Part shown: positions 179 through 61,205 of the stretch, piece after piece
Numbering within the stretch: position 1 is the first letter of the stretch
Layout: each line of letters begins with the position of its first letter
Virus record (IMG/VR): IMGVR_UViG_3300000062_000002
Span: 1-62,854 of that record
DNA from: a virus
Direction: 5' to 3' (one strand)
DNA length: 62,854 nucleotides
Position numbers and translations under genes: made by a program
The notes under the pieces: model-generated
Databases searched by the model: none
What the model saw: the letters and a program-made list of their open reading frames with translations, nothing else
Told to the model about the DNA's origin: nothing

Positions 179-429
179 AAAGAACGAAAGGAAAGGACTT
201 AACAATGCCAGAATTTAAAATCACAGGAACAACAGAAGAGATTGCAGATGTAGTTATTGCACTTGATGTAAGCGAGGTTATAGGGATTGAAACTGCTCAC
301 AAGTGCGGAGGGAATTGTCACAATTGCACTTGCAATGACCACACCTACAGTGCTACGTTTTTGAATCTAACCAAAAATGAGCTTGCTGCACTGAAAAGCT
401 ATTACGATATAATTCGGGGGTTAAACTGA
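175..429 (+). CDS. Hypothetical small Cys/His-rich protein (HKCGGNCHNCTCNDH)
   Basis: 84-aa ORF. An alternative start at ATG 205 has a better RBS (AAGGAAAGGA, 7-nt spacer). Its stop overlaps the next ATG (429). Confidence 0.6.
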   Translation: MKRTKGKDLTMPEFKITGTTEEIADVVIALDVSEVIGIETAHKCGGNCHNCTCNDHTYSATFLNLTKNELAALKSYYDIIRGLN

Positions 430-2432
430 TGAAATTAATATCTTTAGCCCTACATCAATTCAAGGGTATAGAATCATTCTCGCTGAAAGTTGACGGTAAC
501 AATGCCACTGTATACGGTCAAAACGGCACAGGAAAGACAACACTTGCAGACGCATATCTTTGGTTGCTTACAGGCAAGAACAGCGCAGGAGAAACGCTAG
601 ACCCATTTACAGTAAATGAAAAAGGGGAACGCAAGCATCAAGGGCAAGAGCCGACTGTAGAAGCCGTGTTTATAGCAGAGGACGGCGAACAAATTACCTT
701 CAAACGCTCGCTTGTTGAAAAATGGGTAAAAAAGACCGGGCATACCGACCGCAACTATACAGGAGATGAAAGCAAGTTCTGGATTGATGGAGTGCCAAAC
801 AAATCAGGCGATTATAACAGCTACATAGAGCGCACATTTGCCACTGAATCAGTTTTGCGGTTACTGACAAATACAGGATATTTCAATACCCAAATCAAAA
901 AAGATGACCGCCGAAAGCTTTTGTTTGAGACTTTTGGCGATATGGCTGACAGTGAAATACTGGCAGATACCGAAGAACTGACAGACCTTGCCGCAGAAAT
1001 AGGCAAAAAAAACGTAGTCGATTACCAGAAGATGATTAAAGAGCAATACACAACGACTTGCAAACAGATTGAACTTATACCGGTTAGGATTGACGAGGCC
1101 GCCAAGAACATTACAGAGGGCATAGACAGTGACAAAGCGCAGGCTGACATATCAACACTTAATGCTGAAATCGCAAATTTGAGAGAAAAACTCACAGATA
1201 CTAGCGATAATGCGGTAATTAGCCTAAAACGAGAGTTGCTAACCCTCCAGAGGGAAATTGAAACAAAAAACACCGAACGGAAGCGGGAAATAGCCGATAA
1301 TGTGAGCGAGCATGAAAGGTCATTTCAATCTGAAATCCGAGACCTAAAAAACCGTGTTGATAGCCTTTTACACACTGCAAAAACCAATGATGCTCATATA
1401 ATGAGGAGCGAGAACAGAATCAAAGAGCTTAATACCGAAATCGCCAACAAACGTAAATCATGGAATGACAAAAAAAGCGAATGGAATGCAAAAAACGCTG
1501 AAACTTTTAATCCTGATAGCACAAATTGCCCAACCTGCGGTCAAACATTTCCGGCTGACAAAATTGCAGAAATGCAATCCAACTGGAACGAGCAAAAAGC
1601 TGCAAACCTTTCTGAAATCAGCGCATATATGGAGCAGATACAGGCATATGGCAAAACCTTAGCAGCTGAACTTGAAGAATGCAATACCGCACTTGCAGCA
1701 CTCAAAGAACAGCAAAACGGCACTCGTGCAGTCTATGAGGAAGCGGTAAGTAATCTTAATCAAGCGCAGGCAAACTACAAGTCATATATAGTTGACCCTG
1801 CCAAAGAAGAGATTCATACAGTCCTTATAAACAATTTGCAGATGCAGATAGCTAATATCGAATCAAAAATAAACACAGCTAATCAGGACACGCACCCCGA
1901 AAAAGATTCAATACTGCAAAAAATATCCGAGAGAGAAGCGCATATATCAGAATTACAGGCGGACATTGCAAAAGCCAACCTTTCGAAAGAATCACAAAAT
2001 CGTATAGATGAATACGAAGCTGAACAAAAAAGACTTGGTACTATCAGAGACCATGCAGAAAAAATGCTATATTTGTGCGACAGGTTTACCCGCATTAAAA
2101 GCGAAAAGATAACAGGCAACATTAACAAGCATTTCCAGATAGTTGAATTTTCACTCTTTGAGATTTTGAAAAACGGCGGCATGAAACAAGCTTGCGAAAC
2201 AACTATTGATGGTGTGGAATATTCGCAGCTGAACAAAGCAAGGCAAGTGGCCGGCAGTGTTGACATTATCAAAACATTTGCCAAAGCGCTTAATGTGTCA
2301 TTCCCTTTGTTTATAGATAATTCGGAATCAGTCTTGACCTTGTACGGAGTGGACACGCAGGACATACAAATCATTCGGCTTGCAGTTAGTGAGCATGATA
2401 AGGAATTGAGAGTGGAGAGGGAATTGATATGA
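429..2432 (+). CDS. SbcC/Rad50/RecN-like SMC-type ATPase with coiled coil and CxxC hook
   Basis: N-terminal Walker A GQNGTGKTT. A long heptad-rich middle contains CPTC (1527..1538). The C-terminus has a hydrophobic-Asp Walker-B-like motif (PLFIDNSES). Confidence 0.75.
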   Translation: MKLISLALHQFKGIESFSLKVDGNNATVYGQNGTGKTTLADAYLWLLTGKNSAGETLDPFTVNEKGERKHQGQEPTVEAVFIAEDGEQITFKRSLVEKWVKKTGHTDRNYTGDESKFWIDGVPNKSGDYNSYIERTFATESVLRLLTNTGYFNTQIKKDDRRKLLFETFGDMADSEILADTEELTDLAAEIGKKNVVDYQKMIKEQYTTTCKQIELIPVRIDEAAKNITEGIDSDKAQADISTLNAEIANLREKLTDTSDNAVISLKRELLTLQREIETKNTERKREIADNVSEHERSFQSEIRDLKNRVDSLLHTAKTNDAHIMRSENRIKELNTEIANKRKSWNDKKSEWNAKNAETFNPDSTNCPTCGQTFPADKIAEMQSNWNEQKAANLSEISAYMEQIQAYGKTLAAELEECNTALAALKEQQNGTRAVYEEAVSNLNQAQANYKSYIVDPAKEEIHTVLINNLQMQIANIESKINTANQDTHPEKDSILQKISEREAHISELQADIAKANLSKESQNRIDEYEAEQKRLGTIRDHAEKMLYLCDRFTRIKSEKITGNINKHFQIVEFSLFEILKNGGMKQACETTIDGVEYSQLNKARQVAGSVDIIKTFAKALNVSFPLFIDNSESVLTLYGVDTQDIQIIRLAVSEHDKELRVERELI

Positions 2433-2722
2433 TGGAACCCAACATTGAAGTATTCGGGAAGAGTGTAAGAGCGTTTCGTGAACAAGCTCGAATGACAAAG
2501 GCAGAATTAGCAAAAAAGGTTGGACTTACTAGTACAAGTATCAGTTCATATGAAAAAGGAGCAAAAAAGCCGACACTAGAATCAGCGTTATCTATTGCCG
2601 CTGCTTTCGGTACGACCGTTGACGAAATGTGCAAAAAGGAAGTTTGCCTCGATATATTCAGCAAAAGCCTTGATATGTCTATCAGCAAACAGGATAAGGA
2701 ATTGAGGGTGGAAATGGTATGA
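2429..2722 (+). CDS. XRE-family helix-turn-helix protein
   Basis: AFREQARMTKAELAKKVGLTSTSISSYEKGAKKPTLESALSIAAAFG fits the XRE HTH pattern. Overlapping starts and stops on both sides. Confidence 0.8.
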   Translation: MMEPNIEVFGKSVRAFREQARMTKAELAKKVGLTSTSISSYEKGAKKPTLESALSIAAAFGTTVDEMCKKEVCLDIFSKSLDMSISKQDKELRVEMV

Positions 2723-3609
2723 ATGCAAAAAATATAGCAAAATCGCTCAACGCAAAACTTAACGATTGGCTGAAAAACATAGATAATGAGGAGATTCAAA
2801 AGGTAATCAAAGAAAATGCTATTGTCACTGGCGGAGCACTTGTTTCTCTACTAAATGGAGAATCGCCTAACGACTACGACATATATTTTAAGGATTTTGA
2901 TTCTTGTCTTTCTGTTGCAAAATATTACGCTGGTGAATGGAATAAAGCACACCCTGATAAATCACAAGTACAGATTACAGTTGATGAAAAAACCAAGCGC
3001 ATAACAGCTTTCATTTCCAGTGACGGAATTGTCACCGAAGACGAAGAAAACGGCATTGATAATGAAACAGAGCCAGAAGACATTGAACCTGATGTTGCTG
3101 AACCCGAAGATGAACAGTCTAAAGATAATGCTAAATACAGACCATGTTATTTTTCTACAAATGCTATTTCTCTTTCTGATGACATTCAGTTAATCATAAG
3201 GTTTTACGGTTCTGTTGATGAAATTCACACAAATTATGATTTTGTGCATTGCACATGTTCTTATGACTTTAAGGGAAACAAAGTTAATCTGCCTGCGAAA
3301 GCACTAGAAGCAATCATTAACAAAGAACTTTTTTATTGTGGCAGCAAGTACCCGCTTTGCTCTATTATTCGCTCCCGCAAGTTTATCTCTCGGGGTTGGC
3401 ACATTAATGCAGGGCAATATCTAAAGATGTGCTTGCAGTTGAATGAAATTGACTTGAAAGACCTAAAAGTATTTTCAGACCAGTTGGCAGGAGTAGACAG
3501 TCTTTACTTTTCGCAAGCAATTTCAGAGATACAGCAAAAACAAGGAAAAGAACCAGAGTTTAATGTTGACAATTCATATCTATTTGAAGTTATTAACAGA
3601 ATATTTTAG
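2719..3609 (+). CDS. Hypothetical protein, possibly a Pol-beta-type nucleotidyltransferase fold, with an acidic insert
   Basis: VTGGALVSLLNGESPNDYDIYF resembles the GG..DxD minimal NTase signature. Acidic low-complexity stretch EDEENGIDNETEPEDIEPDVAEPEDE. Confidence 0.55.
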   Translation: MNAKNIAKSLNAKLNDWLKNIDNEEIQKVIKENAIVTGGALVSLLNGESPNDYDIYFKDFDSCLSVAKYYAGEWNKAHPDKSQVQITVDEKTKRITAFISSDGIVTEDEENGIDNETEPEDIEPDVAEPEDEQSKDNAKYRPCYFSTNAISLSDDIQLIIRFYGSVDEIHTNYDFVHCTCSYDFKGNKVNLPAKALEAIINKELFYCGSKYPLCSIIRSRKFISRGWHINAGQYLKMCLQLNEIDLKDLKVFSDQLAGVDSLYFSQAISEIQQKQGKEPEFNVDNSYLFEVINRIF

Positions 3610-3624
3610 GAGGGAAATAATATA

Positions 3625-4647
3625 ATGCCTGAAAAGCCAACAGTACCAGAAACAAACCAGTCACTTAAAACAACAAAAAAAGCAGAAATAGCACCGTCTG
3701 AACGCTTTGCAAAGCTAGTCATAAGAGAGTATGAGAGTATGGTAAGTGTAGGCTCACAGATGACCGAAACACAGCGGCGATTAGTGAAAAACTACTTTAT
3801 AGCCACTGACAGAGTATTACAGGGTGCAGAACAGCGGCGCTTAGCTAAGTCCGAAAATTACAGAGATGTTTTGCCTGTGACATGGCAAAACGTAGATATG
3901 ACCGCTTTTGCGTTGGACTGTGTACATTATTCCAGACTAGGACTTGACCCGCTCCAAAAGAATCATTTGCATATTATCCCATACAAAAACAACAAGACAA
4001 AAAAGTATGATATGACCTTGATGGAGGGTTACGAGGGCAAAGAATTAAAGGCAAAAAAATACGCTCTCGATATTCCGAAAGCGATTGACTGCGAACTTGT
4101 ATACAGCAATGACACTTTTACACTCCTTAAAAAAGGCGCAACAAACAAAGTAGAATCATACGAATTTGAAATCAATGACCCATTTGACCGTGGAAAAATA
4201 AAAGGCGGGTTTGGATATATCCAGTACGACCAGCCTGAAAAAAACCGTGTTATCGTTTTGTCTATGAAGGATATTTTGAAACGCAAAAACTCTGGTGCAG
4301 GTAATGTTGAGTTTTGGGGCGGTGAAAAGGACAAATGGGAAAACGGCAAAAAGACTGGCAAGGTTGCAGTCGAGGGATGGCAAGACGAAATGATGCTCAA
4401 GACCGTCAAGCGACATGTATTCGGTCAGATAGCCATTGACCCCTCAAAGATTGATGATACCTACAACTACACAGAAAAACGTGAGATTGAATATGCACAG
4501 GCTTTTGCACAGGATGAAATCGACCAGAAAGCAAACAATGGCGTAATGATTGATGCAGATTTTGCAGAGGTTGAGGACACCCGACAACTACCACAGGCTG
4601 ACGAAAATGGGGAAGTGGTTGAGGATTTGGAAAGCGCAGGTTTTTGA
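3625..4647 (+). CDS. recT: RecT-family single-strand annealing protein
   Basis: 340 aa. Core GFGYIQYD..VIVLSMKDILKRK..WQDEMMLKTVKRHVF is RecT-like and the C-terminal tail is acidic. GGAGGG RBS. Confidence 0.7.
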   Translation: MPEKPTVPETNQSLKTTKKAEIAPSERFAKLVIREYESMVSVGSQMTETQRRLVKNYFIATDRVLQGAEQRRLAKSENYRDVLPVTWQNVDMTAFALDCVHYSRLGLDPLQKNHLHIIPYKNNKTKKYDMTLMEGYEGKELKAKKYALDIPKAIDCELVYSNDTFTLLKKGATNKVESYEFEINDPFDRGKIKGGFGYIQYDQPEKNRVIVLSMKDILKRKNSGAGNVEFWGGEKDKWENGKKTGKVAVEGWQDEMMLKTVKRHVFGQIAIDPSKIDDTYNYTEKREIEYAQAFAQDEIDQKANNGVMIDADFAEVEDTRQLPQADENGEVVEDLESAGF

Positions 4648-5351
4648 TTATGGGTTTCAAATGTCTACAGTCGGGAAGTTCGGGAAACTGTTTCACTCTC
4701 TTTGATGAACAAACCCGCATTTTGATTGAGTGTGGCATACCATACAAGAAACTACTACAAGGAATTGGTTTTAATTTAAGTCAGTACGAAGGCTGTATTC
4801 TGACCCATGAACACGCAGACCACAGCCACACAGTAAAGGACATAATGAAAGCCGGGATAAACTGCTATATGAGCCACGGAACAGCACAGGCACTTGACAT
4901 TTCAGGTTACAGAGTGAAAACCATAGAAGCCTTAAAGCCGTTCAATATAGGTACATACAAGGTCATGGCCTTTGATGTAAATCATGATGCAGCACAGCCA
5001 TTCGGATATGTAATAAAATCAACCGTCACGAAAGAATCGCTTGTATTCATCACCGACAGCTATTATGTATCAAACCAGTTCAAGAATGTTGATTATTTTG
5101 CAATAGAATCAAACTATATCACGGAACATTTTATGCAAAGCAGCACAGCACCCGAACTAAAGAAAAGGCTTTTTACAAGCCACATGAGTTTAGAAAACAG
5201 TATTAAATTCTTGCAAGCGCAGGATTTAAGCAAGTGCAAAAAGATATACCTGACACACATTTCCAAAACAAACGGAGATGGTGAAATAATGCGCAGGGAA
5301 GTAATGAAAGCCACAGGCAAAGAAACAATAATATGCGGAAAGGAAGATTGA
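4644..5351 (+). CDS. Metallo-beta-lactamase-fold hydrolase, likely the nuclease partner of RecT
   Basis: HxHxDH motif (THEHADHS). Overlaps the recT stop (ATGA-type coupling). Confidence 0.8.
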   Translation: MIMGFKCLQSGSSGNCFTLFDEQTRILIECGIPYKKLLQGIGFNLSQYEGCILTHEHADHSHTVKDIMKAGINCYMSHGTAQALDISGYRVKTIEALKPFNIGTYKVMAFDVNHDAAQPFGYVIKSTVTKESLVFITDSYYVSNQFKNVDYFAIESNYITEHFMQSSTAPELKKRLFTSHMSLENSIKFLQAQDLSKCKKIYLTHISKTNGDGEIMRREVMKATGKETIICGKED

Positions 5352-5761: not shown

Positions 5762-6490
5762 ATGCTTAAAGAATTTGTTGAAAAACTCACATCACTTGCT
5801 ACACCTCAGACTTATGAAATCAACGGAGATACATATGCCACTGTACCTATAAACCGCATAGCTCCTCATGTTGACCGCTTGAAAAGTATTGAATTTTCAT
5901 CCCTCGATGGCATCGTTCAGGCAATCAAAACTGAAATATCCAGAGATGAAATAGGAAAGCCATTATTTGTAAGCATTGCTTCACACATTAAAGTTGAAGT
6001 GTTTACCACTTACCGAAAAGACAATATGGCACGAGATATGCTCTATTTCGCAAGACCCGATTTGCCTATTGCATTTAACATGTGGAGCGACCATGACGAT
6101 GCAATCATAATGTTGCGTAGTCAATTTGTGCCGAATGCAGGAACAGAGTATTTGCTTGACTTGCTGTCTCGCATTTCCAACGAGGATTCGGTCACCAGTG
6201 ATGACAATGGTGTTACACAGAAAGTCACAGCATCAACAGGCATAGCAATGAAAAAGACTGAAAATATAAATGGACGTGTTGTCTTAGCTCCATTCCGCAC
6301 ATTCTTTGAAGTGGATCAACCTGAAAGCGAATTTATTTTGCGTATCAAGCAGGGTGAAACTCCAAAAATCGGCATTATTGAAGCTGATGGCGGGGCATGG
6401 AAATTGAAAGCTAAGCATAACATTGCTGATTATTTCCGTGAAAATCTCAAAGACCTTATTTCCGAAAAACTGGTGGTTGTGGCGGAATGA
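5762..6490 (+). CDS. Hypothetical phage protein
   Basis: 242-aa ORF in the co-directional early operon. I recognise no motif. Confidence 0.6.
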   Translation: MLKEFVEKLTSLATPQTYEINGDTYATVPINRIAPHVDRLKSIEFSSLDGIVQAIKTEISRDEIGKPLFVSIASHIKVEVFTTYRKDNMARDMLYFARPDLPIAFNMWSDHDDAIIMLRSQFVPNAGTEYLLDLLSRISNEDSVTSDDNGVTQKVTASTGIAMKKTENINGRVVLAPFRTFFEVDQPESEFILRIKQGETPKIGIIEADGGAWKLKAKHNIADYFRENLKDLISEKLVVVAE

Positions 6491-9570: not shown

Positions 9571-9591
9571 TAAATTAACGGAGTGATATTA

Positions 9592-10407
9592 ATGATTAAA
9601 GTTGGAGATTTTGTTAAAGGGCGAGCCGACTCACCTTATGGCATTACAAACGGAAATATGACACGCGCATTGGTGGTAGATGTCATTGGTGATTCAAGTA
9701 TTAAAATACGAATACTTGAACATACCGATTGGGATGGAACATATGCAATATTTAATGTAGATTCAAAACACTTTGATGTAATCGGTCATATAAAGCCTTT
9801 TAATCGCAATGATGTGTTGAAATTTTTGTTAAATGGTTGCAAAAAAGCAATCCTTGACTACGACCTAAGAGGTGCTGACCTAATCGATGCTAACCTAAGC
9901 CGTGCTAACCTAAGCGGTGCTAACCTAAGCGATGCTGACCTAAGCGATGCTGACCTAAGCGATGCTAACCTAAGCCGTGCTAACCTAAGAGGTGCTGACC
10001 TAAGCGATGCTGACCTAAGCCGTGCTGACCTAAGAGGTGCTGACCTAAGCGATGCTGACCTAATCGATGCTAACCTAAGCCGTGCTAACCTAAGCGATGC
10101 TGACCTAAGCGATGCTGACCTAAGAGGTGCTGACCTAAGCGATGCTGACCTAAGCCGTGCTGACCTAAGAGGTGCTGACCTAAGCGATGCTGACCTAAGC
10201 CGTGCTGACCTAGATTTTTCCTGTTGGCCTCTTTGGTGTGGCAGTCTAAAGGTCAAAACAGATGTGAAACAAACGGTACAAGTAGCATATCATCTTTGTT
10301 CTATGCAATGCGATGATCCCAAATATATAAAAATGCGAAATAGCATTCTTGATTTTGCAAATGAATTTCATCGTGTAGATGAATGCGGAAGATTGGAAAT
10401 AAAATGA
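9592..10407 (+). CDS. Pentapeptide-repeat protein (about 23 consecutive A(D/N)LSx units) with unique N- and C-terminal domains
   Basis: [25 protein letters not shown].. runs for about 115 aa. GGAG RBS before ATG 9592. Confidence 0.9.
9860..10215 (+). repeat. Tandem 15-bp coding repeats (gatgctgacctaagc and variants) encoding the pentapeptide array
   Basis: The near-identical 15/30-bp periodicity is visible directly in the nucleotide sequence. Confidence 0.9.
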
Positions 10408-49153: not shown

Positions 49154-49462
49154 TTACATTAATATGTTTTGAATTTGAATCATGTCATACTCGGCCAAAT
49201 GCCCCATTTTTCTCACAAGGTCGTTATCTTTAAGAACGCAGATTTTTGAAGTTCTGATTGTTGTTTCTTTATCAAGTCCAACCCTTGCCCAATATTTCAA
49301 CGTATATTCAGCGTTATTTCTTGGATAATGAGTTGTCATCTTTAAAGATATAATAAATCCTTGTTTTTCTCCTACAATAAGCACAGGACGCTTTTTTATT
49401 ATGTCTGAATCCTCAAATTTGACCTTTGCAAACCAGACTTCCCATTTTTTACATCTAATCAT
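49154..49462 (-). CDS. PemK/MazF-fold toxin-like protein
   Basis: KKWEVWFAKVKF....KKRPVLIV..ISLKMTTHYPRN..GLDKETTIRTSKICVLKDNDLVRKMGHL fits the MazF/PemK pattern. ATG 49462 overlaps the PanA stop by 8 nt (the ORF track starts at 49489). Confidence 0.65.
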   Translation of the reverse strand: MIRCKKWEVWFAKVKFEDSDIIKKRPVLIVGEKQGFIISLKMTTHYPRNNAEYTLKYWARVGLDKETTIRTSKICVLKDNDLVRKMGHLAEYDMIQIQNILM

Positions 49463-50009
49463 ATTTATCCCAGTAGTCATCTTCTTCATCTTTTGGCAAT
49501 ACTAAATAACCATCAGCATCACGATAACCGACTGTCTCAATACTTTTTAATTCAAATATATCATCAAAAGATATTAGTTTCTCATGGTTTGAAAAATAAG
49601 AAGTTATATGGGTTTTGTCTATAATTTCACCTTTTACAGTTCTTTCCCATGGTGAGCCGATAACATGCGTTTTATTGACAAGATAAGCGGCCGTATATTT
49701 ACAATACTCCCGTGCAGAATCAAGCAGAATATTATATTCTTCATCCGTGAATAGGTGCGCTAACTCCTTGTCTATAGCAGATATATTGTTTCTTCCACAT
49801 ATCTTGTATTTTTGGTAAACAGCAGGAACAACGGGTCCGAGATCCCATGCTTCAATGTCATCATCAAAAAGAGGTTTCCCAGTCTTGGCGAGGTAATGAC
49901 CCTGTGCATAATAAAGCAGCTTGTTTAATTTCAAATTAGTTATTTCGCCTTCTTCATCTTGCCCGGCTAACTCTATAAAAAAATCAGCCACATCATAAAC
50001 ATTTGCCAT
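49455..50009 (-). CDS. Panacea (DUF4065, SocA-like) antitoxin-domain protein, paralog 1
   Basis: LKLNKLLYYAQGHYLAKTGKPLFDDDIEAWDLGPVVPAVYQKYK is the DUF4065 core. Confidence 0.8.
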   Translation of the reverse strand: MANVYDVADFFIELAGQDEEGEITNLKLNKLLYYAQGHYLAKTGKPLFDDDIEAWDLGPVVPAVYQKYKICGRNNISAIDKELAHLFTDEEYNILLDSAREYCKYTAAYLVNKTHVIGSPWERTVKGEIIDKTHITSYFSNHEKLISFDDIFELKSIETVGYRDADGYLVLPKDEEDDYWDKYD

Positions 50010-51378: not shown

Positions 51379-54087
51379 ATGACATATTTTAACAATGTAA
51401 AATCTTATGAGGATTTAAAAAATCAATACAGAACCCTAGCACTTGCTAACCATCCCGACATGGGCGGCGATACCGAGACAATGCAAGCAATCAATAAAGA
51501 ATATGACGCTCTTTTCCCAGTCTGGAAGCACCGCAATGCAATAAATAATAATGAGACTGCAACAAGCACACGCAGCGAGTTCTACACACAATACGGTTGG
51601 AAAGGCTCGAATTACAACAGAAATATGAGCCTGAAAGAAATTGCTGTAGCCATTCGTGATTTTATCAAAATCCACTTTAACGACTGCAAATTCAGTGTAA
51701 CAACAAGCTACGCAAGCATGTGCCAAGAATTACACATTACGCTAATGGAAAGTCCACACAGAGCATATAAGTTTTTTGATGAATTAACTGAAGATGAAAA
51801 ACAAAAAATCCGCCAAGACTATACAAGAGAACACAACATAAACAACTATTTTGTTAATGAAATAAATGCAAAAATTGCCGAAATTTATAGCGAAAGATAT
51901 AGCAATAGCTATTATACCGAAGAAGTAAAAGCAATAGTACACGCCGTACAGGATTATGCAAACTCTTTTAATTATGATGATTCTGATGGAATGATAGACT
52001 ATTTCGATACAAACTTTTATTTTTTCGGCGTAACGCTTGGCAAATGGGATAAACCCTTTAAAGTCGTTGACCGCAAAAAAACAACCGTTGCTAATGTGGA
52101 ATACGAGACCGTAGAAGTCACCAAAACACGCACTAAAAAAGTTTTAGAGCCGAAAGCTATAGAAGCACCGGCAGAAATAAAAGAAGGTCAATACTTCCAG
52201 CTTTTGACCGGGTTTAATTATGGTTGCTATAAAGGCAGCGTTTACCAGATTACCCACATAAACGGCACTTTTGTAAATTCCTGCAAAATGGGCAAAGGCT
52301 ATAAAAATGTCACCGGCGGCACCGTCAGAGGCACAAGCTTCAACTGTGATATTGACCGCCTGAAAGCTTTTGTTGCAAAAGGTTCGATTGCCTTTGTTGA
52401 GTTGGTAGAGGTTACAAAAACAGAGGAATACACAAGCACAACACGCCGCCCCAAGAAATCAACAGGACTTTCAACAGAAGTAAAAGAGCCAAGCGACACA
52501 ACAGAAAGAACAGCCGAGACAGCAACAACAGAGCCAAGACCATACACAGTAACAGAGGACACAGACACCCGCGACAATAGCGCTCTTTGGGTTGTTAAAT
52601 TTTCCGACAGAATGAGCAAAGAAGAATACCAAGCAACAGCGGCAACAATAAAAGCCATAAAAGGCATATACAGCCGATTCAAAAAAGGCTTTATATTCCG
52701 CTATGACCCAACCGAAGAAATGAACTGCATATTTAACAATGTAAATTCTGATGGTTCCGCAAACACTGATGAAAATATGCAGTTAATAGCGGATTGCATA
52801 GAGGACGCAAGCACAGAAATTATTGAAAAGCTAAATTTACAGCCGGGCGAATTTGTGATAAATTTTGAGTACAAAGAGCATTTAACAGCATACATAAAGG
52901 AAAATAAAAAGCGCATTACTAAAAAAGTTATAGAAAAAATCGACATTGCAGAATTGCGTAAAGTGGTGGCGGGAATACTCGCCGCCATAGGTACCACAAC
53001 AATACAAAAACCGCCCAAAACAGACATTAAAACCAAAACACAAGAAAAGATAAGCAAGCAAATTGAAAGTCTTACAGCTAAAATCAAAGCACTATCTGGC
53101 GACTACAAAACAAATACATATAAGCGTATGCAGGAACAAGCAAGCAGAGAAAAAACAAAAGAGGGTTACAACTTCGAGGTTGATTTATTAATATATCTTT
53201 ACGGCATTTCAGAACAGCGAAAACTAACAATACTTGAACAAAATTTACTTGTTGATGCTTTTCGTGATAGGCTTCACGGTTATTATAACAGGCATAAAGA
53301 ATGGATGGAAACACCGCCCGAAAAGCGTTGCATTGCTTGGATGCCTATATCATACCCGAAAACAAGCTCAACAGCAGCAGAATGGTATAACAAAGATGTG
53401 CCAAAGCAACAAAAGCAATTAAACAAAGCAGAAATTTACAACACCAAACAATTAATAAAAGCGGTTGAAAAATACGGCGAAATTGTCAAAGAAGCTGTAA
53501 AACCAATTGACAGAACAGCACAAGAAATTAAGCGCAGAGAAAAAGAATGTAAATTACAGCAAAAAGGTGATGTACAATTTACACATTTGGAAGTAGCAAG
53601 GCAACTTGTAGAACTCGCTGGAATTGATGAAAATAGCAGAGTTTTAGAACCGTCTGCGGGTATTGGTAATATAGCAGATCAGATTAGGACAGTAACAAAA
53701 AACATTGATGTTATAGAGCAAATGAGCAATTTTAGAGAACTTTTACAACTCAAAGATTATAATCTTGTAGGCTATGACTTCTTAGAATATCAGCCAGAAA
53801 AAAGTTACACGCATATTTTAATGAATCCGCCATTCTCTAAAAATCAAGACATTCAGCACCTAAAACATGCTTATTCAATGCTTGAAAACGGCGGCACACT
53901 TGTTTGTATAATATCACCACATTGGAGTTTTGCCAATGATAAAGAATCAATAAATTTTAGGCTTTGGCTTGATGAGCAGGATTATTACACTGAGGATTTG
54001 CAAGCAAAAACCTTTGAAATGACAGGCGTAACAAGCAAAATAATAGTTATCAATAAAAGAGTAGAACAGCAAGAAAATATAGCATAG
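51379..54087 (+). CDS. Large multidomain ('polyvalent'-like) protein: N-terminal J-domain plus C-terminal N6-adenine-type SAM methyltransferase
   Basis: J-domain YEDLKNQYRTLALANHPDMGGDTETMQAINKEYDALF (HPD at 51451..51459). MTase motif I VLEPSAGIGNI (from 53641). Motif IV NPPF (53824..53835). Confidence 0.75.
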   Translation: MTYFNNVKSYEDLKNQYRTLALANHPDMGGDTETMQAINKEYDALFPVWKHRNAINNNETATSTRSEFYTQYGWKGSNYNRNMSLKEIAVAIRDFIKIHFNDCKFSVTTSYASMCQELHITLMESPHRAYKFFDELTEDEKQKIRQDYTREHNINNYFVNEINAKIAEIYSERYSNSYYTEEVKAIVHAVQDYANSFNYDDSDGMIDYFDTNFYFFGVTLGKWDKPFKVVDRKKTTVANVEYETVEVTKTRTKKVLEPKAIEAPAEIKEGQYFQLLTGFNYGCYKGSVYQITHINGTFVNSCKMGKGYKNVTGGTVRGTSFNCDIDRLKAFVAKGSIAFVELVEVTKTEEYTSTTRRPKKSTGLSTEVKEPSDTTERTAETATTEPRPYTVTEDTDTRDNSALWVVKFSDRMSKEEYQATAATIKAIKGIYSRFKKGFIFRYDPTEEMNCIFNNVNSDGSANTDENMQLIADCIEDASTEIIEKLNLQPGEFVINFEYKEHLTAYIKENKKRITKKVIEKIDIAELRKVVAGILAAIGTTTIQKPPKTDIKTKTQEKISKQIESLTAKIKALSGDYKTNTYKRMQEQASREKTKEGYNFEVDLLIYLYGISEQRKLTILEQNLLVDAFRDRLHGYYNRHKEWMETPPEKRCIAWMPISYPKTSSTAAEWYNKDVPKQQKQLNKAEIYNTKQLIKAVEKYGEIVKEAVKPIDRTAQEIKRREKECKLQQKGDVQFTHLEVARQLVELAGIDENSRVLEPSAGIGNIADQIRTVTKNIDVIEQMSNFRELLQLKDYNLVGYDFLEYQPEKSYTHILMNPPFSKNQDIQHLKHAYSMLENGGTLVCIISPHWSFANDKESINFRLWLDEQDYYTEDLQAKTFEMTGVTSKIIVINKRVEQQENIA

Positions 54088-54529: not shown

Positions 54530-54967
54530 ATGAATTATGATGCTTTGAACATAGCACAGTATATTATCGACTATTGCAATAAAAATAATCTGTCTGTAAA
54601 CAATTTGAAGCTGCAAACGCTCTTATATTTTGTTTGGATTCATTATTATAAACAAACGGGCAAAATACTTTTTGATGATAATTTTTCGGCAAGGCAGTTG
54701 GGGCCCGCTGTTTCAGAAGTGTATTATGAATACTGCCCTTGGGGTGGCATACATATTTTTCGAAGATATGAAGTGCCGCTTTTGCTTGAAGACAAAACCA
54801 CTATTGATGAATGCCTAGCTAAAGAGGCTCTATTCCCCTTATGTAGTCTCTCTGAAAAATCTCGCAAGCAGTGTGGTGCATGGAATACTATCTACAAGGA
54901 CGGCAGTGGCGACAGTCTTATAATTCCACAGAAAATTATTATTGACCTTGAATGCCGTACAGCATAA
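54530..54967 (+). CDS. Panacea (DUF4065, SocA-like) domain protein, paralog 2 (no obvious partner)
   Basis: LKLQTLLYFVWIHYYKQTGKILFDDNFSARQLGPAVSEVYYEY. Confidence 0.75.
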   Translation: MNYDALNIAQYIIDYCNKNNLSVNNLKLQTLLYFVWIHYYKQTGKILFDDNFSARQLGPAVSEVYYEYCPWGGIHIFRRYEVPLLLEDKTTIDECLAKEALFPLCSLSEKSRKQCGAWNTIYKDGSGDSLIIPQKIIIDLECRTA

Positions 54968-56203: not shown

Positions 56204-56650
56204 ATGTCGATACAAGCTTTAGTAAATTCTATATTGATACGGTCTTTTGAAGAAAAAGAACCGATTACCCCTATGAAATTACAAAAATTGGTTTATTTTG
56301 TTTACAGGGAATATTTGAGAGAAAGCGGAAAACCGCCATTTACAGAATTGTTCGAAACATGGAAGTACGGGCCCGTATTGCCTAGTGTATATGATGAATT
56401 CAATTCTTTTGGCTCGTCACCTATAACAAAGTTTGCACGTGATGCAAAAGGAACAGTTTTTACAATTGATGATAAAAAATCTCCAATTATGGCAAAATGT
56501 ATAAATAAAGTATGGGAAAAATATAAAAGATGCAGTGGTATAGAATTATCTAAATTAACACATTTAGATGGTTCTGCATGGTCTAACGCATTTGAAAAAG
56601 GTGCTAAAACTCTTGACATTGAGGATATATGCAATGAACAAATTAATTAA
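56204..56650 (+). CDS. Panacea (DUF4065, SocA-like) antitoxin-domain protein, paralog 3
   Basis: PMKLQKLVYFVYREYLRESGKPPFTELFETWKYGPVLPSVYDEF. Confidence 0.8.
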   Translation: MSIQALVNSILIRSFEEKEPITPMKLQKLVYFVYREYLRESGKPPFTELFETWKYGPVLPSVYDEFNSFGSSPITKFARDAKGTVFTIDDKKSPIMAKCINKVWEKYKRCSGIELSKLTHLDGSAWSNAFEKGAKTLDIEDICNEQIN

Positions 56651-56996
56651 AAAACCTGAAATCAGAGTTGAGCATGACGAATCTTTTCAAGTATCTGCTG
56701 AACGTAACACAGACGAATTAGTTTCTTACAAAGAGATTCCTTCTAATCGTGCTGACGAAATTGAAAAATTGGTTACTATCAGCGAAAAAATGAATGGCAT
56801 CTTATTAAAAACGCACGCACTTAAATTATTAGTAACTTGCTTGGCTACAATATTTGGCGTATATGTTATTGATTTGGCCGTAATCAATATTGGCCTTATC
56901 AATAGCAACATGGGAACAACACTTGTAGATTTTCTCAAATATATTGCAACTGCATTGCTTGGTTATCTTTTTGCGATAAAGCAAATAGATAGTTAA
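56634..56996 (+). CDS. Two-TM membrane protein overlapping the PanA gene: candidate membrane-targeting toxin
   Basis: ATG 56634 overlaps PanA by 17 nt. The C-terminus has two TM helices (LLVTCLATIFGVYVIDLAVINIGLI; LVDFLKYIATALLGYLFAI). Confidence 0.5.
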   Translation: MNKLIKKPEIRVEHDESFQVSAERNTDELVSYKEIPSNRADEIEKLVTISEKMNGILLKTHALKLLVTCLATIFGVYVIDLAVINIGLINSNMGTTLVDFLKYIATALLGYLFAIKQIDS

Positions 56997-58284: not shown

Positions 58285-58764
58285 TTACATGTTTTTTTGT
58301 GAATCGGAATTTTTTGTAAGTTTTTGTTTAATTTCCATTATCGCATTTCTGTTTCTCATGACACCGCTTTCTATAAGCTTTAAATATCTCATTGCTTTTG
58401 AGTGTACAGATGATATTATTTTTTTGTCTTTTACTATGTAAGGAGTTCCGCTTATAACATAGGCCCCTATAATATAATCGCCTGTTACTGGAAACATGTC
58501 ACTTATCAAGAAAACTCTCTCTTTACCTGATATTATTCCAACATGGTAATATATACAATTCCCTGCTCCACGTTTCAATTCTTCACGCTTTATTTTTTCT
58601 TTATAATTTGCTGTTTGGGTGCTTAATGGTATCATCCATATAATTCCATCGGTATCAGCAATACAAAAATAATGTGGCCGGCCTGATTTGTTTTCCATCC
58701 AATGTTCAGACGGGAAATCTACAAAATATTTAGCATTAATTTTATACAAACCATTAACATTCAT
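58285..58764 (-). CDS. ToxN/AbiQ/CptN-like type III toxin (endoribonuclease) candidate
   Basis: LYKINAKYFVDFPSEHWMENKSGRPHYFCIADTDGIIWMIPLSTQ..CIYYHVG resembles type III toxin N-termini. AGGAGG RBS. Preceded by a repeat RNA and terminator. Confidence 0.6.
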   Translation of the reverse strand: MNVNGLYKINAKYFVDFPSEHWMENKSGRPHYFCIADTDGIIWMIPLSTQTANYKEKIKREELKRGAGNCIYYHVGIISGKERVFLISDMFPVTGDYIIGAYVISGTPYIVKDKKIISSVHSKAMRYLKLIESGVMRNRNAIMEIKQKLTKNSDSQKNM

Positions 58765-58787
58765 TGCAACCTCCTTTGTACAGAAAG

Positions 58788-58813
58788 AAAGTCCCTCAAT
58801 AAAGAGGGACTTT
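58788..58813 (-). terminator. Rho-independent (attenuating) terminator between the repeat RNA and the toxin gene
   Basis: - strand AAAGTCCCTC-tttatt-GAGGGACTTT followed by CTTTCT. Confidence 0.7.
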
Positions 58814-58905
58814 TGTTAAGTTCAAGCTCAAATTTATACCCCGCACTTGAGCAGGCGGCCGTTGTAAGCAAGTCGCACATTTATATGCCGCTGGCGACAG
58901 GCGGC
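58813..58905 (-). ncRNA. Two adjacent imperfect 46/47-nt direct repeats: candidate type III antitoxin RNA
   Basis: Repeat A (58905..58860) is GCCGCCTGTCGCCAGCGGCATATAAATGTGCGACTTGCTTACAACG. Repeat B (58859..58813) is GCCGCCTGCTCAAGTGCGGGGTATAAATTTGAGCTTGAACTTAACAA. About 70% identity by eye, with no ORF. Confidence 0.5.
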
Positions 58906-58976
58906 AGCTTCTTGTCCTCTCCGTTCACTCTGTAAAGGAGAATTTGTGTTGTAAGGATTGGTTCCCTTACAAATTT

Positions 58977-59005
58977 ATTATATACAATTATGCTTGAAAA
59001 GTAAA
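58977..59005 (-). promoter_or_regulatory. Promoter TTTACT-17-TATAAT for the repeat RNA/toxin unit
   Basis: rc of 59000..59005 is TTTACT and rc of 58977..58982 is TATAAT. 17-nt spacer. Confidence 0.6.
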
Positions 59006-59060
59006 CCACCAAAAGCAATGTTTTGAGTTTCTTTGTAATTTAATAGAATTCAACCACAAA

Positions 59061-59092
59061 ACCCGCCGAAGCGTGAGCCTAAGCGGGTTCGT
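59061..59092. terminator. Hairpin terminator (AACCCGC..GCGGGTT) downstream of gene 59135..60274
   Basis: 7-bp stem with a 16-nt loop. T-runs are present on both strands. Confidence 0.5.
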
Positions 59093-59134
59093 TTTTTATA
59101 TGGACTTTTTGTTTTTACGCTTACTCTGGTTGTG

Positions 59135-60274
59135 CTAACGGTTTCCCAAATATTCAATTTGAATAGCGGGTATGTACTGTTCATCTACGACTTTGTCACG
59201 AATTAAACCTTCACGTTTAGTTTGAAGCGTGGCTTGGCCTCTTCCGTACCCATATATTACAACAGTCTCGCCTTTCAGAAGTTTTGGCTCTTTTACAATT
59301 CGGTTGTCTTTGATAAGAACATCTTGCCCGTTAATTGTTCCCTGATAGTCACCTTGCCCAAAATTAAAAAATTTTTGCACTTCAACCTCTTTTATGTACA
59401 CAGTAACTTTTATTGGAATAGTCTTGTATTTTTCAGGATAACGCTGCAAGTCAAGATAGCTTGGCGATTCAGCTTGTTCGATGAATTTTTCATATGCCAA
59501 TTGAGCTTCTATTATTGCCTGTTCTGCTAACTCTTTTTCCTGCTCTGCTAGTGCCTCTTCCTTTTCTTGCCTAATTTCGGCATACTCTTCCATTTTTAAA
59601 ATGTCTCTGTCATTGGCTAACTCAACTCTTGCATTTTCAACATTTAATGTGCCAGCATATTTGCCAACAACAACTCCAGTAACTGTTATAATTTCACCCT
59701 TAGAAATTGTTCTGCTAAGTTCTTCAATCGAATCAATTTCAATCCTATCATAAGAATATTTTCCTAATTCATCATTTATAAGTATTTCACCATCAGACCC
59801 AATATCAGATACTTTCCCAGTGAACTTTACCCACTCGTTTTTGTATACGCTATCCGAGTAATAATCCCACATATCAACGTAATCAACTGACATAACATTT
59901 TTCGGGGTATATTCATTACTTGAAACATTAGAGCTTTCGGACTTGCTTGATGATTCGTTTTTACTCGATGAATCAGAGTCGGAACTTGGAGTGATAGTAT
60001 TAATAAATGCACAAAGTACAATAAAAATTACAATTGAAATCAAGCAGCCTTTTGCTTTACTTTTTTGAGGTTTTGAAGCGGACATATTTGCACTTGTTAC
60101 ACCTAAGTTACCTCTAATTGGTTCAGGCTTAACATGTTCAACGGGTTCGATTGTTGGCTTGGGTGCAGAAACTTCAATGACGGATTGCTTTTCCGTTGGA
60201 CACCCGCAATTTGGACAAGCTGCCGCCTTGTCGCTAAACTCTTTGCTACATTCAGAACATATTATTAAAGCCAT
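59135..60274 (-). CDS. Zinc-ribbon / single-TM / Ser-rich linker / extracytoplasmic-domain protein
   Basis: CSECSKEF..CPNCGC, TM CLISIVIFIVLCAFINTI, a Ser-rich linker, then a roughly 270-aa domain. Confidence 0.55.
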   Translation of the reverse strand: MALIICSECSKEFSDKAAACPNCGCPTEKQSVIEVSAPKPTIEPVEHVKPEPIRGNLGVTSANMSASKPQKSKAKGCLISIVIFIVLCAFINTITPSSDSDSSSKNESSSKSESSNVSSNEYTPKNVMSVDYVDMWDYYSDSVYKNEWVKFTGKVSDIGSDGEILINDELGKYSYDRIEIDSIEELSRTISKGEIITVTGVVVGKYAGTLNVENARVELANDRDILKMEEYAEIRQEKEEALAEQEKELAEQAIIEAQLAYEKFIEQAESPSYLDLQRYPEKYKTIPIKVTVYIKEVEVQKFFNFGQGDYQGTINGQDVLIKDNRIVKEPKLLKGETVVIYGYGRGQATLQTKREGLIRDKVVDEQYIPAIQIEYLGNR

Positions 60275-60502: not shown

Positions 60503-60895
60503 TTATTTATCTTCTTCGGATGAATCCTGAGCAAGACGTGCTTTTTCAGCAGCTTCTAACGCAGCCATTGCCGCCGCCTGTAACTCTGGAGTTGCGGCAC
60601 GATACAACTTGATATATTCTTTTTCTTTGGCTGTAAGCTCGTCATCTTCTTGGATGGCGGGTTTTTCTTCTACTAAATCGGCCTTTGATATGCCAAAGTA
60701 GTGCGACATAATTTCAATTTTGTCTATGCGTGGATAAGTTTTTCCGTTCAACCAATCTGTCAATGTTGTATATGGCACATTTAGTGCTTCGCACAATTCT
60801 TGTCTTGTTTTATTGTTTTTTTTCATATGATACTGAATGTTTTCGGCCATTGTCTGTTTATTGCCTAGATTGTTTTTCAATGTTTCCACCTCCAC
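60503..60895 (-). CDS. CI-like XRE-family repressor
   Basis: NKTRQELCEALNVPYTTLTDWLNGKTYPRIDKIEIMSHYFGISKADL plus a C-terminal helical tail. The start is uncertain (GTG 60895, TTG 60880 or ATG 60850). Confidence 0.75.
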   Translation of the reverse strand: MEVETLKNNLGNKQTMAENIQYHMKKNNKTRQELCEALNVPYTTLTDWLNGKTYPRIDKIEIMSHYFGISKADLVEEKPAIQEDDELTAKEKEYIKLYRAATPELQAAAMAALEAAEKARLAQDSSEEDK

Positions 60896-60905
60896 AAATT
60901 CAGTA

Positions 60906-60998
60906 TACGGTATTTCCGTAAAAAAATCAAGAAAAAGTCAAAAAAACTCTTGACTTTACGGTTTAACCGTAATATAATAAAAATACGGAATTTCCGTA
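60906..60998. promoter_or_regulatory. Divergent switch region with three TACGG-N5-CCGTA operators and TTGACT-17-TATAAT (rightward) / TTGATT-17-TATACT (leftward) promoters
   Basis: O1 at 60906..60920. O2 at 60956..60972 fills the spacer between TTGACT (60950..60955) and TATAAT (60973..60978). O3 at 60984..60998. Confidence 0.8.
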
Positions 60999-61016
60999 AT
61001 GAAAGGAGTGAAACGG

Positions 61017-61205
61017 TTGGTAACACTTAAAGCAGCAAGAGTAAACAAAGGACTTACCCAAGTAGAAGCAGCAAAAAGGCTTGGAATAAGCGTTGACACA
61101 CTTGGAAATTATGAGCGTGGTAAATATTTTCCGGATGTTCCTGAAATCGAAAAAATAGAGAATCTTTATGGTGTGGAGTATAAAGATATTTTTTTTAAAA
61201 AATAA
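61017..61205 (+). CDS. Cro-like XRE-family HTH protein
   Basis: LKAARVNKGLTQVEAAKRLGISVDTLGNYERGKYFPD. AAAGGAG RBS 8 nt before TTG 61017 (the ORF track starts at 60999). Confidence 0.75.
   Translation: MVTLKAARVNKGLTQVEAAKRLGISVDTLGNYERGKYFPDVPEIEKIENLYGVEYKDIFFKK

Follow-up and report, generated by a model that had tools for sequence, protein, structure and literature searches.

In this study, we analysed a 62,854-nt stretch of viral DNA (IMG/VR record IMGVR_UViG_3300000062_000002, positions 1 to 62,854; the whole stretch is called the window) and found in it a type III toxin-antitoxin (TA) cassette of the CptIN family. Very probably it is an intact cassette carried as accessory cargo by a temperate siphovirus, a judgement that includes the mechanism proposed below and a role in the lysogen. 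The family is known; the new point is the phage as replicon class, for which no report on CptIN was found in the literature searched. A previous model-made reading of the letters (the sequence-only reading) had proposed a promoter, tandem-repeat RNA, a terminator and a toxin open reading frame (ORF) in this order. All of these elements were found in their places, and the type III interpretation was borne out by independent tests of the toxin family, the CptI-type pseudoknots and the conserved architecture. The predicted elements of the cassette, in minus-strand order, are the following.

58977..59005, minus strand: sigma-70-type promoter, with the -35 box TTTACT (59005..59000), a 17-nt spacer and the -10 box TATAAT (58982..58977).
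58949..58972, minus strand: 8-bp hairpin UUGUAAGG...CCUUACAA at the predicted 5' end of the transcript (-8.8 kcal/mol, z -3.0).
58917..58942, minus strand: second leader hairpin (UCUCC...GGAGA region), present in the minimum free energy and centroid folds of the whole transcript.
58822..58906, minus strand: region hit by the two-unit RNA model (89.2 bits, E 1.9e-25; every stem-2 pair in the model is standard).
58860..58905, minus strand: CptI unit 1, 46 nt (evidence: shuffles, pseudoknot, covariation, RNA model).
58905..58901 with 58891..58887, minus strand: stem 1 of unit 1 (GCCGC/GCGGC).
58898..58894 with 58876..58872, minus strand: stem 2 of unit 1 (GUCGC/GCGAC).
58886..58877, minus strand: loop L2 of unit 1 (AUAUAAAUGU), with the linker UUGCUUACAACG at 58871..58860.
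58813..58859, minus strand: CptI unit 2, 47 nt (same four kinds of evidence).
58858..58855 with 58844..58841, minus strand: stem 1 of unit 2 (CCGC/GCGG).
58852..58847 with 58831..58826, minus strand: stem 2 of unit 2 (GCUCAA/UUGAGC).
58840..58832, minus strand: loop L2 of unit 2 (GGUAUAAAU), with the tail UUGAA starting at 58825.
58781..58813, minus strand: intrinsic terminator, with a 10-bp stem AAAGUCCCUC/GAGGGACUUU (58813..58788), a 6-nt loop and a U-rich run.
58770..58775, minus strand: ribosome-binding site (RBS) AGGAGG, 5 nt before the ATG, read from the sequence.
58285..58764, minus strand: cptN toxin gene, 159 amino acids (aa) plus stop (evidence: NCBIfam, sequence and fold of 4RMO, PHROG, conserved columns).

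The toxin ORF, which had been likened to ToxN/AbiQ/CptN endoribonucleases, could be placed in one of these families. The CptIN equivalog model of NCBIfam (NF047359) matched residues 5-149 of the 159 with 117.7 bits (cut-off 90, E 3.9e-34). The TenpIN model (NF047358) gave 12.9 bits against a cut-off of 90, which does not make the ORF a TenpN. When phmmer was run against the PDB sequences, the sole real match was CptN of Eubacterium rectale (4RMO_A, E 8.8e-20). Pfam at E up to 10 returned no family for the ORF, any ToxN model included, and PADLOC returned no match for it; both being empty, the ORF does not belong to the ToxN/AbiQ family by sequence. An AlphaFold2 model was made from a 3-sequence alignment (pLDDT 68; predicted template-modelling score 0.62). 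Foldseek against the PDB ranked 4RMO_A first (E 3.7e-9, template-modelling scores 0.68/0.70, about 29% identity over the structural alignment), followed by AbiQ (4GLK, hit 2, E 9e-3) and E. coli ToxN (7D8O, hit 4, E 2e-2), and then by CcdB/MazF. This ranking is what would be expected for a type III toxin, and the moderate-confidence model displays the CptN/ToxN variant of the MazF/Kid fold. CptIN, which the sequence-only reading had put forward as the closest family by repeat length and copy number, is thus indicated by the equivalog score, by 4RMO in both sequence and fold, and by the pseudoknots described below.

The conservation within the family was also inspected. PHROG 33519 matched the toxin with E 1.2e-38 and carries the label 'unknown function'. 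An exhaustive profile search with the toxin collected 859 clusters at 50% identity (E up to 0.001). The window toxin keeps the columns conserved among 69 full-length members, namely Y7, N25, K26, R29, P30, W43, P46, S48, C70, F85, P92, Y97, Y102 and K123. The Ser-Ser/Thr motif of E. rectale CptN and its Tyr stacking on the scissile base are conserved (S48, T49 and Y102 in the window). The third triad position is Gln50, where the published triad, Ser-Ser/Thr-Arg, has Arg; the 69 members have Q in 28, K in 25 and R in 6. Judged by its sequence, the ORF at 58285..58764(-) is a CptN toxin. Since the gene could already be named by the NCBI annotation models, the discovery is incremental.

Directly upstream of the toxin gene lie two adjacent units of 46 and 47 nt (58905..58813(-)), in line with the 40-48-nt repeats of CptIN loci. 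The sequence-only reading had described them as imperfect repeats with about 70% identity by eye. When 58905..58860 was aligned with 58859..58813, 36 of 51 columns were identical (71%), and none of 2000 shuffles reached the score. Both repeats open with GCCGCCTG and hold TATAAAT, as had been read. Tandem Repeats Finder (minimum score 30) reported no repeat at the locus because the copies are too divergent, so the pairwise alignment with shuffles was used. Each unit has the topology of an H-type pseudoknot: two stems are present, and L2 is long and rich in A, as expected for CptIN. The E. rectale CptI repeat, AAGUUUACCACUGACCGAUAUGUGGUAUAUAAAUGGUCGGGUUGA as read from the reverse complement of a published primer, forms such a pseudoknot; its two stems are coaxial, and A29 and U30 in its long, A-rich L2 (A27-G35, AUAUAAAUG) are required for antitoxin activity (PMC4627078). 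L2 of unit 1 opens with the same 9 nt, and the A-rich loop motif ATATAAAT is common to the window units and the crystallised CptI.

The stems had been partly misread. GCCGC/GCGGC and CCGC/GCGG had been taken as a compensatory change, and they are really one stem that is one pair shorter in unit 2. The true compensatory changes had escaped notice. They lie in stem 2, whose arms are GTCGC/GCGAC in the first unit and GCTCAA/TTGAGC in the second; this is the stem that sets the units apart, and its arms can pair in both versions. An Rfam search at E up to 10 gave chance-level matches only, and no family fitted the CptI RNA. Folded singly with nested pairs only, the units were no better than shuffles (z about 0). 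Nested-only folding cannot score a pseudoknot, so this value was expected. A generic constrained pseudoknot search was discarded as noisy (2.9 matches per region versus 1.6 in shuffles, with competing registers), and a homology-anchored alignment was used in its place.

The related loci were collected by pattern scans with a seven-sequence alignment, which yielded 11 viral loci from IMG/VR and 19 genome loci from GTDB. Nearly all of the latter are metagenome-assembled genomes (MAGs) of Oscillospiraceae or other Clostridia. A 40-sequence alignment was too diverse for the pattern search, a scan of viral contigs with the single protein found no relatives, and a word-indexed protein search yielded, apart from the window protein, no more than two relatives of about 50% identity. 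The related loci all follow one order: promoter, leader, two units, terminator, RBS and toxin. Two loci, L031 and L032, have units almost identical to the published E. rectale CptI. In L032, a Clostridia MAG, apparently one full CptI unit lies between promoter and terminator; the family is reported at 1.9-3.4 copies.

Covariation in homologous loci, which the sequence-only reading had named as a check, was counted for both stems of both units in a 91-column alignment of the two-unit block from 25 loci. The controls were 500 column shuffles and versions in which the 3' partners were slid by 1-3 columns. In these counts, which are not tree-aware, standard pairs filled 90.9% of the cells, compared with 76.5% in the column shuffles and 29-46% with slid partners. 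Changes on both sides were seen in 14 of the 20 pairs (at most 7 in any slid version), and the covariation score was 0.41 (0.154 in shuffles, at most 0.116 when slid). On any of these measures, 0/500 shuffles reached the observed value. Most of the signal was carried by stem 2 (4/5 pairs in unit 1 and 6/6 pairs in unit 2). The compensatory retention of both stems in both units implies that the predicted pseudoknots are under selection.

A covariance model of the two-unit RNA was then available from 24 loci, with the window left out. This model found the window (58822..58906(-)), so the RNA belongs to the family by an independent test. No second match was present in the window (next best E about 1), that is, there are no orphan CptI units in the phage genome. 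The low identity of the two repeats had raised the concern that the RNA might be a divergent antitoxin. Our results dispel it: the identity between the units of one locus is 0.68-0.86 in 21 of the 25 loci and above 0.9 in four, so that divergence is the rule, and both units keep the fold. The idea that the two units represent separate orthologous types across loci was dropped, the mean identity being 0.74 for units in the same position and 0.72 for crossed positions.

The upstream elements were examined in the same way. The promoter TTTACT-17-TATAAT matches the consensus at 10/12 positions. Promoter-like sites were not enriched in the region (4 found versus 4.7 expected in shuffles), and a promoter with at least 9/12 matches stood at the equivalent relative place in 23 of the 25 related loci. 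The shuffle counts make the promoter evidence weak by itself, and its weight comes from this conservation. The hairpin at the 5' end of the transcript keeps its position but not its sequence in nearly all related loci. Here the sequence-only reading had seen a possible partial third copy of the repeat. That segment overlaps the -10 box and the 5' hairpin; the 8-mer CTTACAAC occurs in it as in the unit 1 linker, but the stem arms are missing, and the RNA model found no partial unit in it. It was rejected as a repeat copy and is most simply explained as the conserved hairpin.

The second leader hairpin also occurs in many related loci. Considered together, the leader of the window (58917..58972(-)) and those of L001-L030 let the CptI transcript open with one or two hairpins, and L031/L032 are without them. 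These hairpins may protect the 5' end of the antitoxin precursor. The whole predicted transcript was more stable than its own shuffles (z -3.5). At its end, the 10-bp stem with its T-run, as read earlier, folds with -16.5 kcal/mol (z -4.8), and a hairpin with a T-run is found at the same place in related loci. Both the window and the related loci thus appear, by sequence, to have a promoter before the repeats and a rho-independent terminator before the toxin, as CptIN loci do. The RBS (58775..58770) and the ATG at 58764 of the 159-aa ORF were also as described. The description of the RNA region as free of ORFs holds less literally: two mechanical ORFs (39 and 45 aa) overlap with the leader. 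The shorter one starts at an ATG in L2 of unit 1, and most related loci have no ATG there. No promoter of the toxin gene's own was seen within the 23 nt between terminator and ATG, so the toxin would be expressed only by terminator read-through.

The sequence-only reading had placed the cassette on a phage, and the gene content agrees. The window encodes a large terminase, a portal, a major head protein and a 1379-aa tape measure, together with a large serine recombinase (serine integrase) and a divergent cI/Cro-type helix-turn-helix (HTH) pair at 60503..61205. Rha, an antirepressor, a DnaB-like helicase, a methylase and an ERCC4-type nuclease are also encoded. Virion and packaging genes and lysogeny functions are therefore joined on one replicon, as in a temperate tailed phage. 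Beyond the window end, the source contig (ENA ERZ27245258 k141_1222710, 73.8 kb) continues from window position 75 onward, identical at 5910/5910 positions, which means that the genome is circular or terminally redundant, at about 62.8 kb. The carrier is a temperate siphovirus and a gut phage; its host is probably one of the Oscillospiraceae or other Clostridia.

The cassette is predicted to form its own transcription unit on the repressor's strand, beside the cI-type repressor, in the part of the genome with the lowest GC content (0.354). Among the relatives, the cassette stands within about 1-2 kb of a tyrosine integrase, with an HTH or antirepressor gene nearby, in four viral lineages and one genome; they are listed here.

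L005, viral: integrase-adjacent cassette.
L009/L010, viral: integrase-adjacent cassette.
L011/L012, viral: integrase-adjacent cassette.
L015, viral: integrase-adjacent cassette.
L019, genome: integrase-adjacent cassette.

This spot is the att-proximal accessory position of prophages. In other genomic relatives the cassette lies among housekeeping genes, so it travels between chromosomes and phages. Beyond the HTH and antirepressor genes, no synteny is shared between the window and the related loci. Neither the locus nor 23 kb of the window had a match when deposited phage genomes were searched at the nucleotide level. At the protein level, 50,697 deposited phage genomes gave one weak, unannotated match, in a Clostridioides phage-plasmid, and the PLSDB plasmids gave 13 records with distant homologues, all annotated 'hypothetical protein'.

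From these data and the known systems, we propose the following mechanism. The single predicted promoter would drive a non-coding RNA made of the hairpin leader and the two 46/47-nt pseudoknot units. By analogy with ToxIN and CptIN, most transcripts would end at the terminator, leaving the RNA in large excess over the toxin. CptN, an endoribonuclease of the MazF/Kid fold, would cut the precursor in the single-stranded linkers, as its relatives do, and would remain attached to the pseudoknots thus freed, two protein and two RNA molecules making up a closed and inactive complex. The RNA is expected to be less stable than the protein; once transcription of the locus stops, free CptN would accumulate and degrade cellular and viral RNA. 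The cassette would be expressed from the prophage, next to the immunity region. As for its main role, we would guess, with moderate confidence, that it is an abortive-infection or superinfection-exclusion device of the lysogen, triggered when an incoming phage shuts off host transcription. Prophage retention, by the killing of cells that lose the prophage, is likely a second effect.

Several observations weigh against this interpretation. Two CptIN systems tested in E. coli gave no phage resistance (PMC3401426, PMC4627078), and plasmid stabilisation is the family's only demonstrated phenotype (PMC4627078, PMC5086642); on both grounds the defence role is the weaker part of the explanation. The toxin structure model, with its pLDDT of 68 from three sequences, has only moderate confidence. 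The remaining points concern the processing site. E. rectale CptI is cut after A45 in GUUGA^AAG, and Asp81, Ser85 and Tyr104 hold the scissile adenine (PMC4627078). In the window toxin, Asp81 and Ser85, which specify this adenine, are replaced by Ser79 and Arg83, and the homologous inter-unit position reads G-C-U instead of G-A-A (linker UUGC-U instead of UUGA-A). At the 5' end of unit 1, no release site was evident.

The comparison of loci places these differences in a pattern. The inter-unit position is an invariant G-C-U in 25/25 loci of the clade, and after unit 2 the G is followed by A, C or U. Asp at the position equivalent to 81 occurs only in the two E. rectale-like loci and in none of the 25-locus clade; the position of Tyr104 is aromatic throughout (Y, F or W). 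This suggests that the scissile base differs from that in E. rectale, in a sequence pattern that is fully confounded with phylogeny. By homology, cuts would be predicted after C58868 and after A58822, which would release a 46-nt unit 2. A conserved processing site 5' of unit 1 was sought by eye in the alignments; CUG[C/U] stands about 12 nt upstream in several loci and is absent there from the window.

A different reading of these features, which we consider unlikely though not negligible, holds jointly that the two CptI units are specialised partners and not redundant, that the toxin cuts after G-C, and that the prophage-encoded cassette serves exclusion. One CptN would then bind two different pseudoknots in an asymmetric 2:1:1 complex. 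Alternatively, the true antitoxin would be unit 2, which has linker sites on both sides and alone would be set free; unit 1 and the hairpin leader would serve as a platform for processing and stability. Cutting after G-C and not after G-A would give the toxin a target specificity unlike that of E. rectale CptN. If this reading were true, prophage-encoded exclusion of competing phages would be the first natural CptIN phenotype and would settle the purpose of the family.

Three other alternatives were considered. It is possible, if somewhat doubtful, that the same molecular system serves mainly selfish maintenance, in which cells that have lost the prophage, or its excised circular form, run out of the unstable CptI first and are killed or arrested by the CptN still present; the cassette would then stabilise the prophage instead of fending off other phages. 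Such a role accords with plasmid stabilisation as the only CptIN phenotype shown, with the lack of abortive infection in E. coli (PMC4627078, PMC5086642), with the recurrence of the cassette beside integrases and immunity genes, and with further TA-like modules (Panacea-domain ORFs, PemK) in the same accessory region of the phage. Against it, segregation seldom removes an integrated prophage, the CptIN tests that came out negative were made with coliphages in a foreign host, and abortion of phage infection is known for ToxIN, AbiQ and TenpIN, systems of the same architecture (PMC3401426). Maintenance is also compatible with a defence role, and the two are not mutually exclusive.

Two proposals remain. 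Phage phiTE reportedly makes a pseudo-ToxI RNA, and the CptI RNA of our phage might likewise neutralise a host-encoded CptN, the adjacent toxin gene being incidental. Chromosomal CptIN of the same clade does occur in Oscillospiraceae and other Clostridia, the likely host range, and the RNA is predicted to be in excess. But the toxin gene is intact, with a good RBS and all family-conserved residues, and with its cognate toxin in place the decoy idea finds no support here. Every viral relative pairs the RNA with a full-length toxin, the RNA model shows no orphan CptI units elsewhere in the genome, and CptI neutralises its cognate toxin only (PMC4627078). We therefore give this anti-defence idea very little credence. 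It is equally improbable that the upstream RNA is just a cis-acting leader or attenuator, or that the cassette is a remnant in decay and its divergent repeats have lost their antitoxin function. The 71% identity of the units, their shuffle-like nested folds and the missing Rfam family could be taken in this sense. Yet compensatory changes have kept both stems of both units across 25 loci, the L2 motif needed for E. rectale antitoxin activity is retained, unit divergence is usual where the toxin is intact, and the nested folding is blind to pseudoknots.

The intact CptIN cassette that we favour has well-described relatives. The cptIN family was defined by a 2012 survey of 33 loci, all chromosomal, with 40-48-nt repeats in 1.9-3.4 copies (PMC3401426); the window differs from them in that its replicon is a phage. 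The CptIN systems tested are toxic, are neutralised by the cognate RNA only, leave a 2',3'-cyclic phosphate on self-processing and form a 2:2 complex (PMC4627078, PMC3401426). E. rectale CptIN (4RMO; PMC4627078) resembles the window in its toxin family, in its order of promoter, two ~45-nt units, terminator and toxin, and in its H-type pseudoknot unit. It differs at the protein level (about 29% identity) and in the triad and processing residues given above. In addition, the window units differ from each other in stem 2, whereas those of the E. rectale-like L031/L032 are near-identical, and the clade of the window has a ~65-nt leader with one or two hairpins that the E. rectale type lacks.

More distant systems share the operon logic. 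ToxIN of Pectobacterium atrosepticum and AbiQ of Lactococcus likewise consist of a repeat RNA, a terminator and an endoribonuclease toxin of the same superfold, and their antitoxin RNA is a pseudoknot processed by its own toxin, as would be the case in the window by analogy. Unlike in the window system, their units are 36 nt long, in up to 5.5 copies, their pseudoknots are triplex, and their complex is triangular (3:3); abortive infection is demonstrated for them, and the window toxin is not one of them at the sequence level. The toxIN of Clostridium phage D-783 and the viral tenpN genes are also type III TA systems on temperate phages or prophages of Bacillota (PMC3401426, PMC12283969) but belong to other families, toxIN and tenpIN. 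According to a 2025 survey, no phage type III system besides the D-783 toxIN was known before its own viral tenpN hits (PMC12283969).

Of the three classical type III families, CptIN is the one least understood: a structure has been solved, and plasmid stabilisation in E. coli is the only phenotype demonstrated. With a complete cassette in its lysogeny region, and with sister cassettes adjoining integrases in other viral contigs, this temperate phage offers a natural setting in which to ask whether CptIN defends the lysogen or stabilises the prophage. The phage also adds a replicon class for CptIN beyond those reported in the literature searched. On the RNA side, for which Rfam holds no matching family, the 25-locus alignment now backs the CptI pseudoknot with covariation, in addition to the one crystal structure.

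Several other genes of the window were noted. Between the cI-type repressor and the CptIN cassette, 59135..60274(-) encodes a 379-aa protein with an N-terminal zinc-ribbon-like CxxC...CxxC and a hydrophobic stretch and with no Pfam match; a terminator-like hairpin of this gene itself lies at about 59060..59095. Three ORFs with a SocA/Panacea antitoxin domain lie in the regions 54530..54967(+), 56204..56996(+) and 49154..50009(-). Downstream, the Panacea ORF 56204..56650 overlaps with a 142-aa ORF, apparently hydrophobic as judged by eye, and after the one at 49455..50009 comes an ORF for a PemK-family toxin. From their sequences, the Panacea/PemK ORFs look like further TA pairs, clustered with CptIN in the lowest-GC part.

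After the Cro-like gene, the region 429..5351(+) encodes an AAA_15/SMC-type ATPase (667 aa), a small HTH protein, a protein with a Pfam Gad2 match, RecT, and a metallo-beta-lactamase-fold protein with a weak Apyc1 match. These genes may serve recombination and anti-defence functions. A pentapeptide-repeat protein is encoded at 9583..10407(+). At 51379..54087(+) lies the gene of a 902-aa protein, the C-terminal third of which matches phage DNA-methyltransferase-like PHROGs and, weakly, Pfam LPD29.

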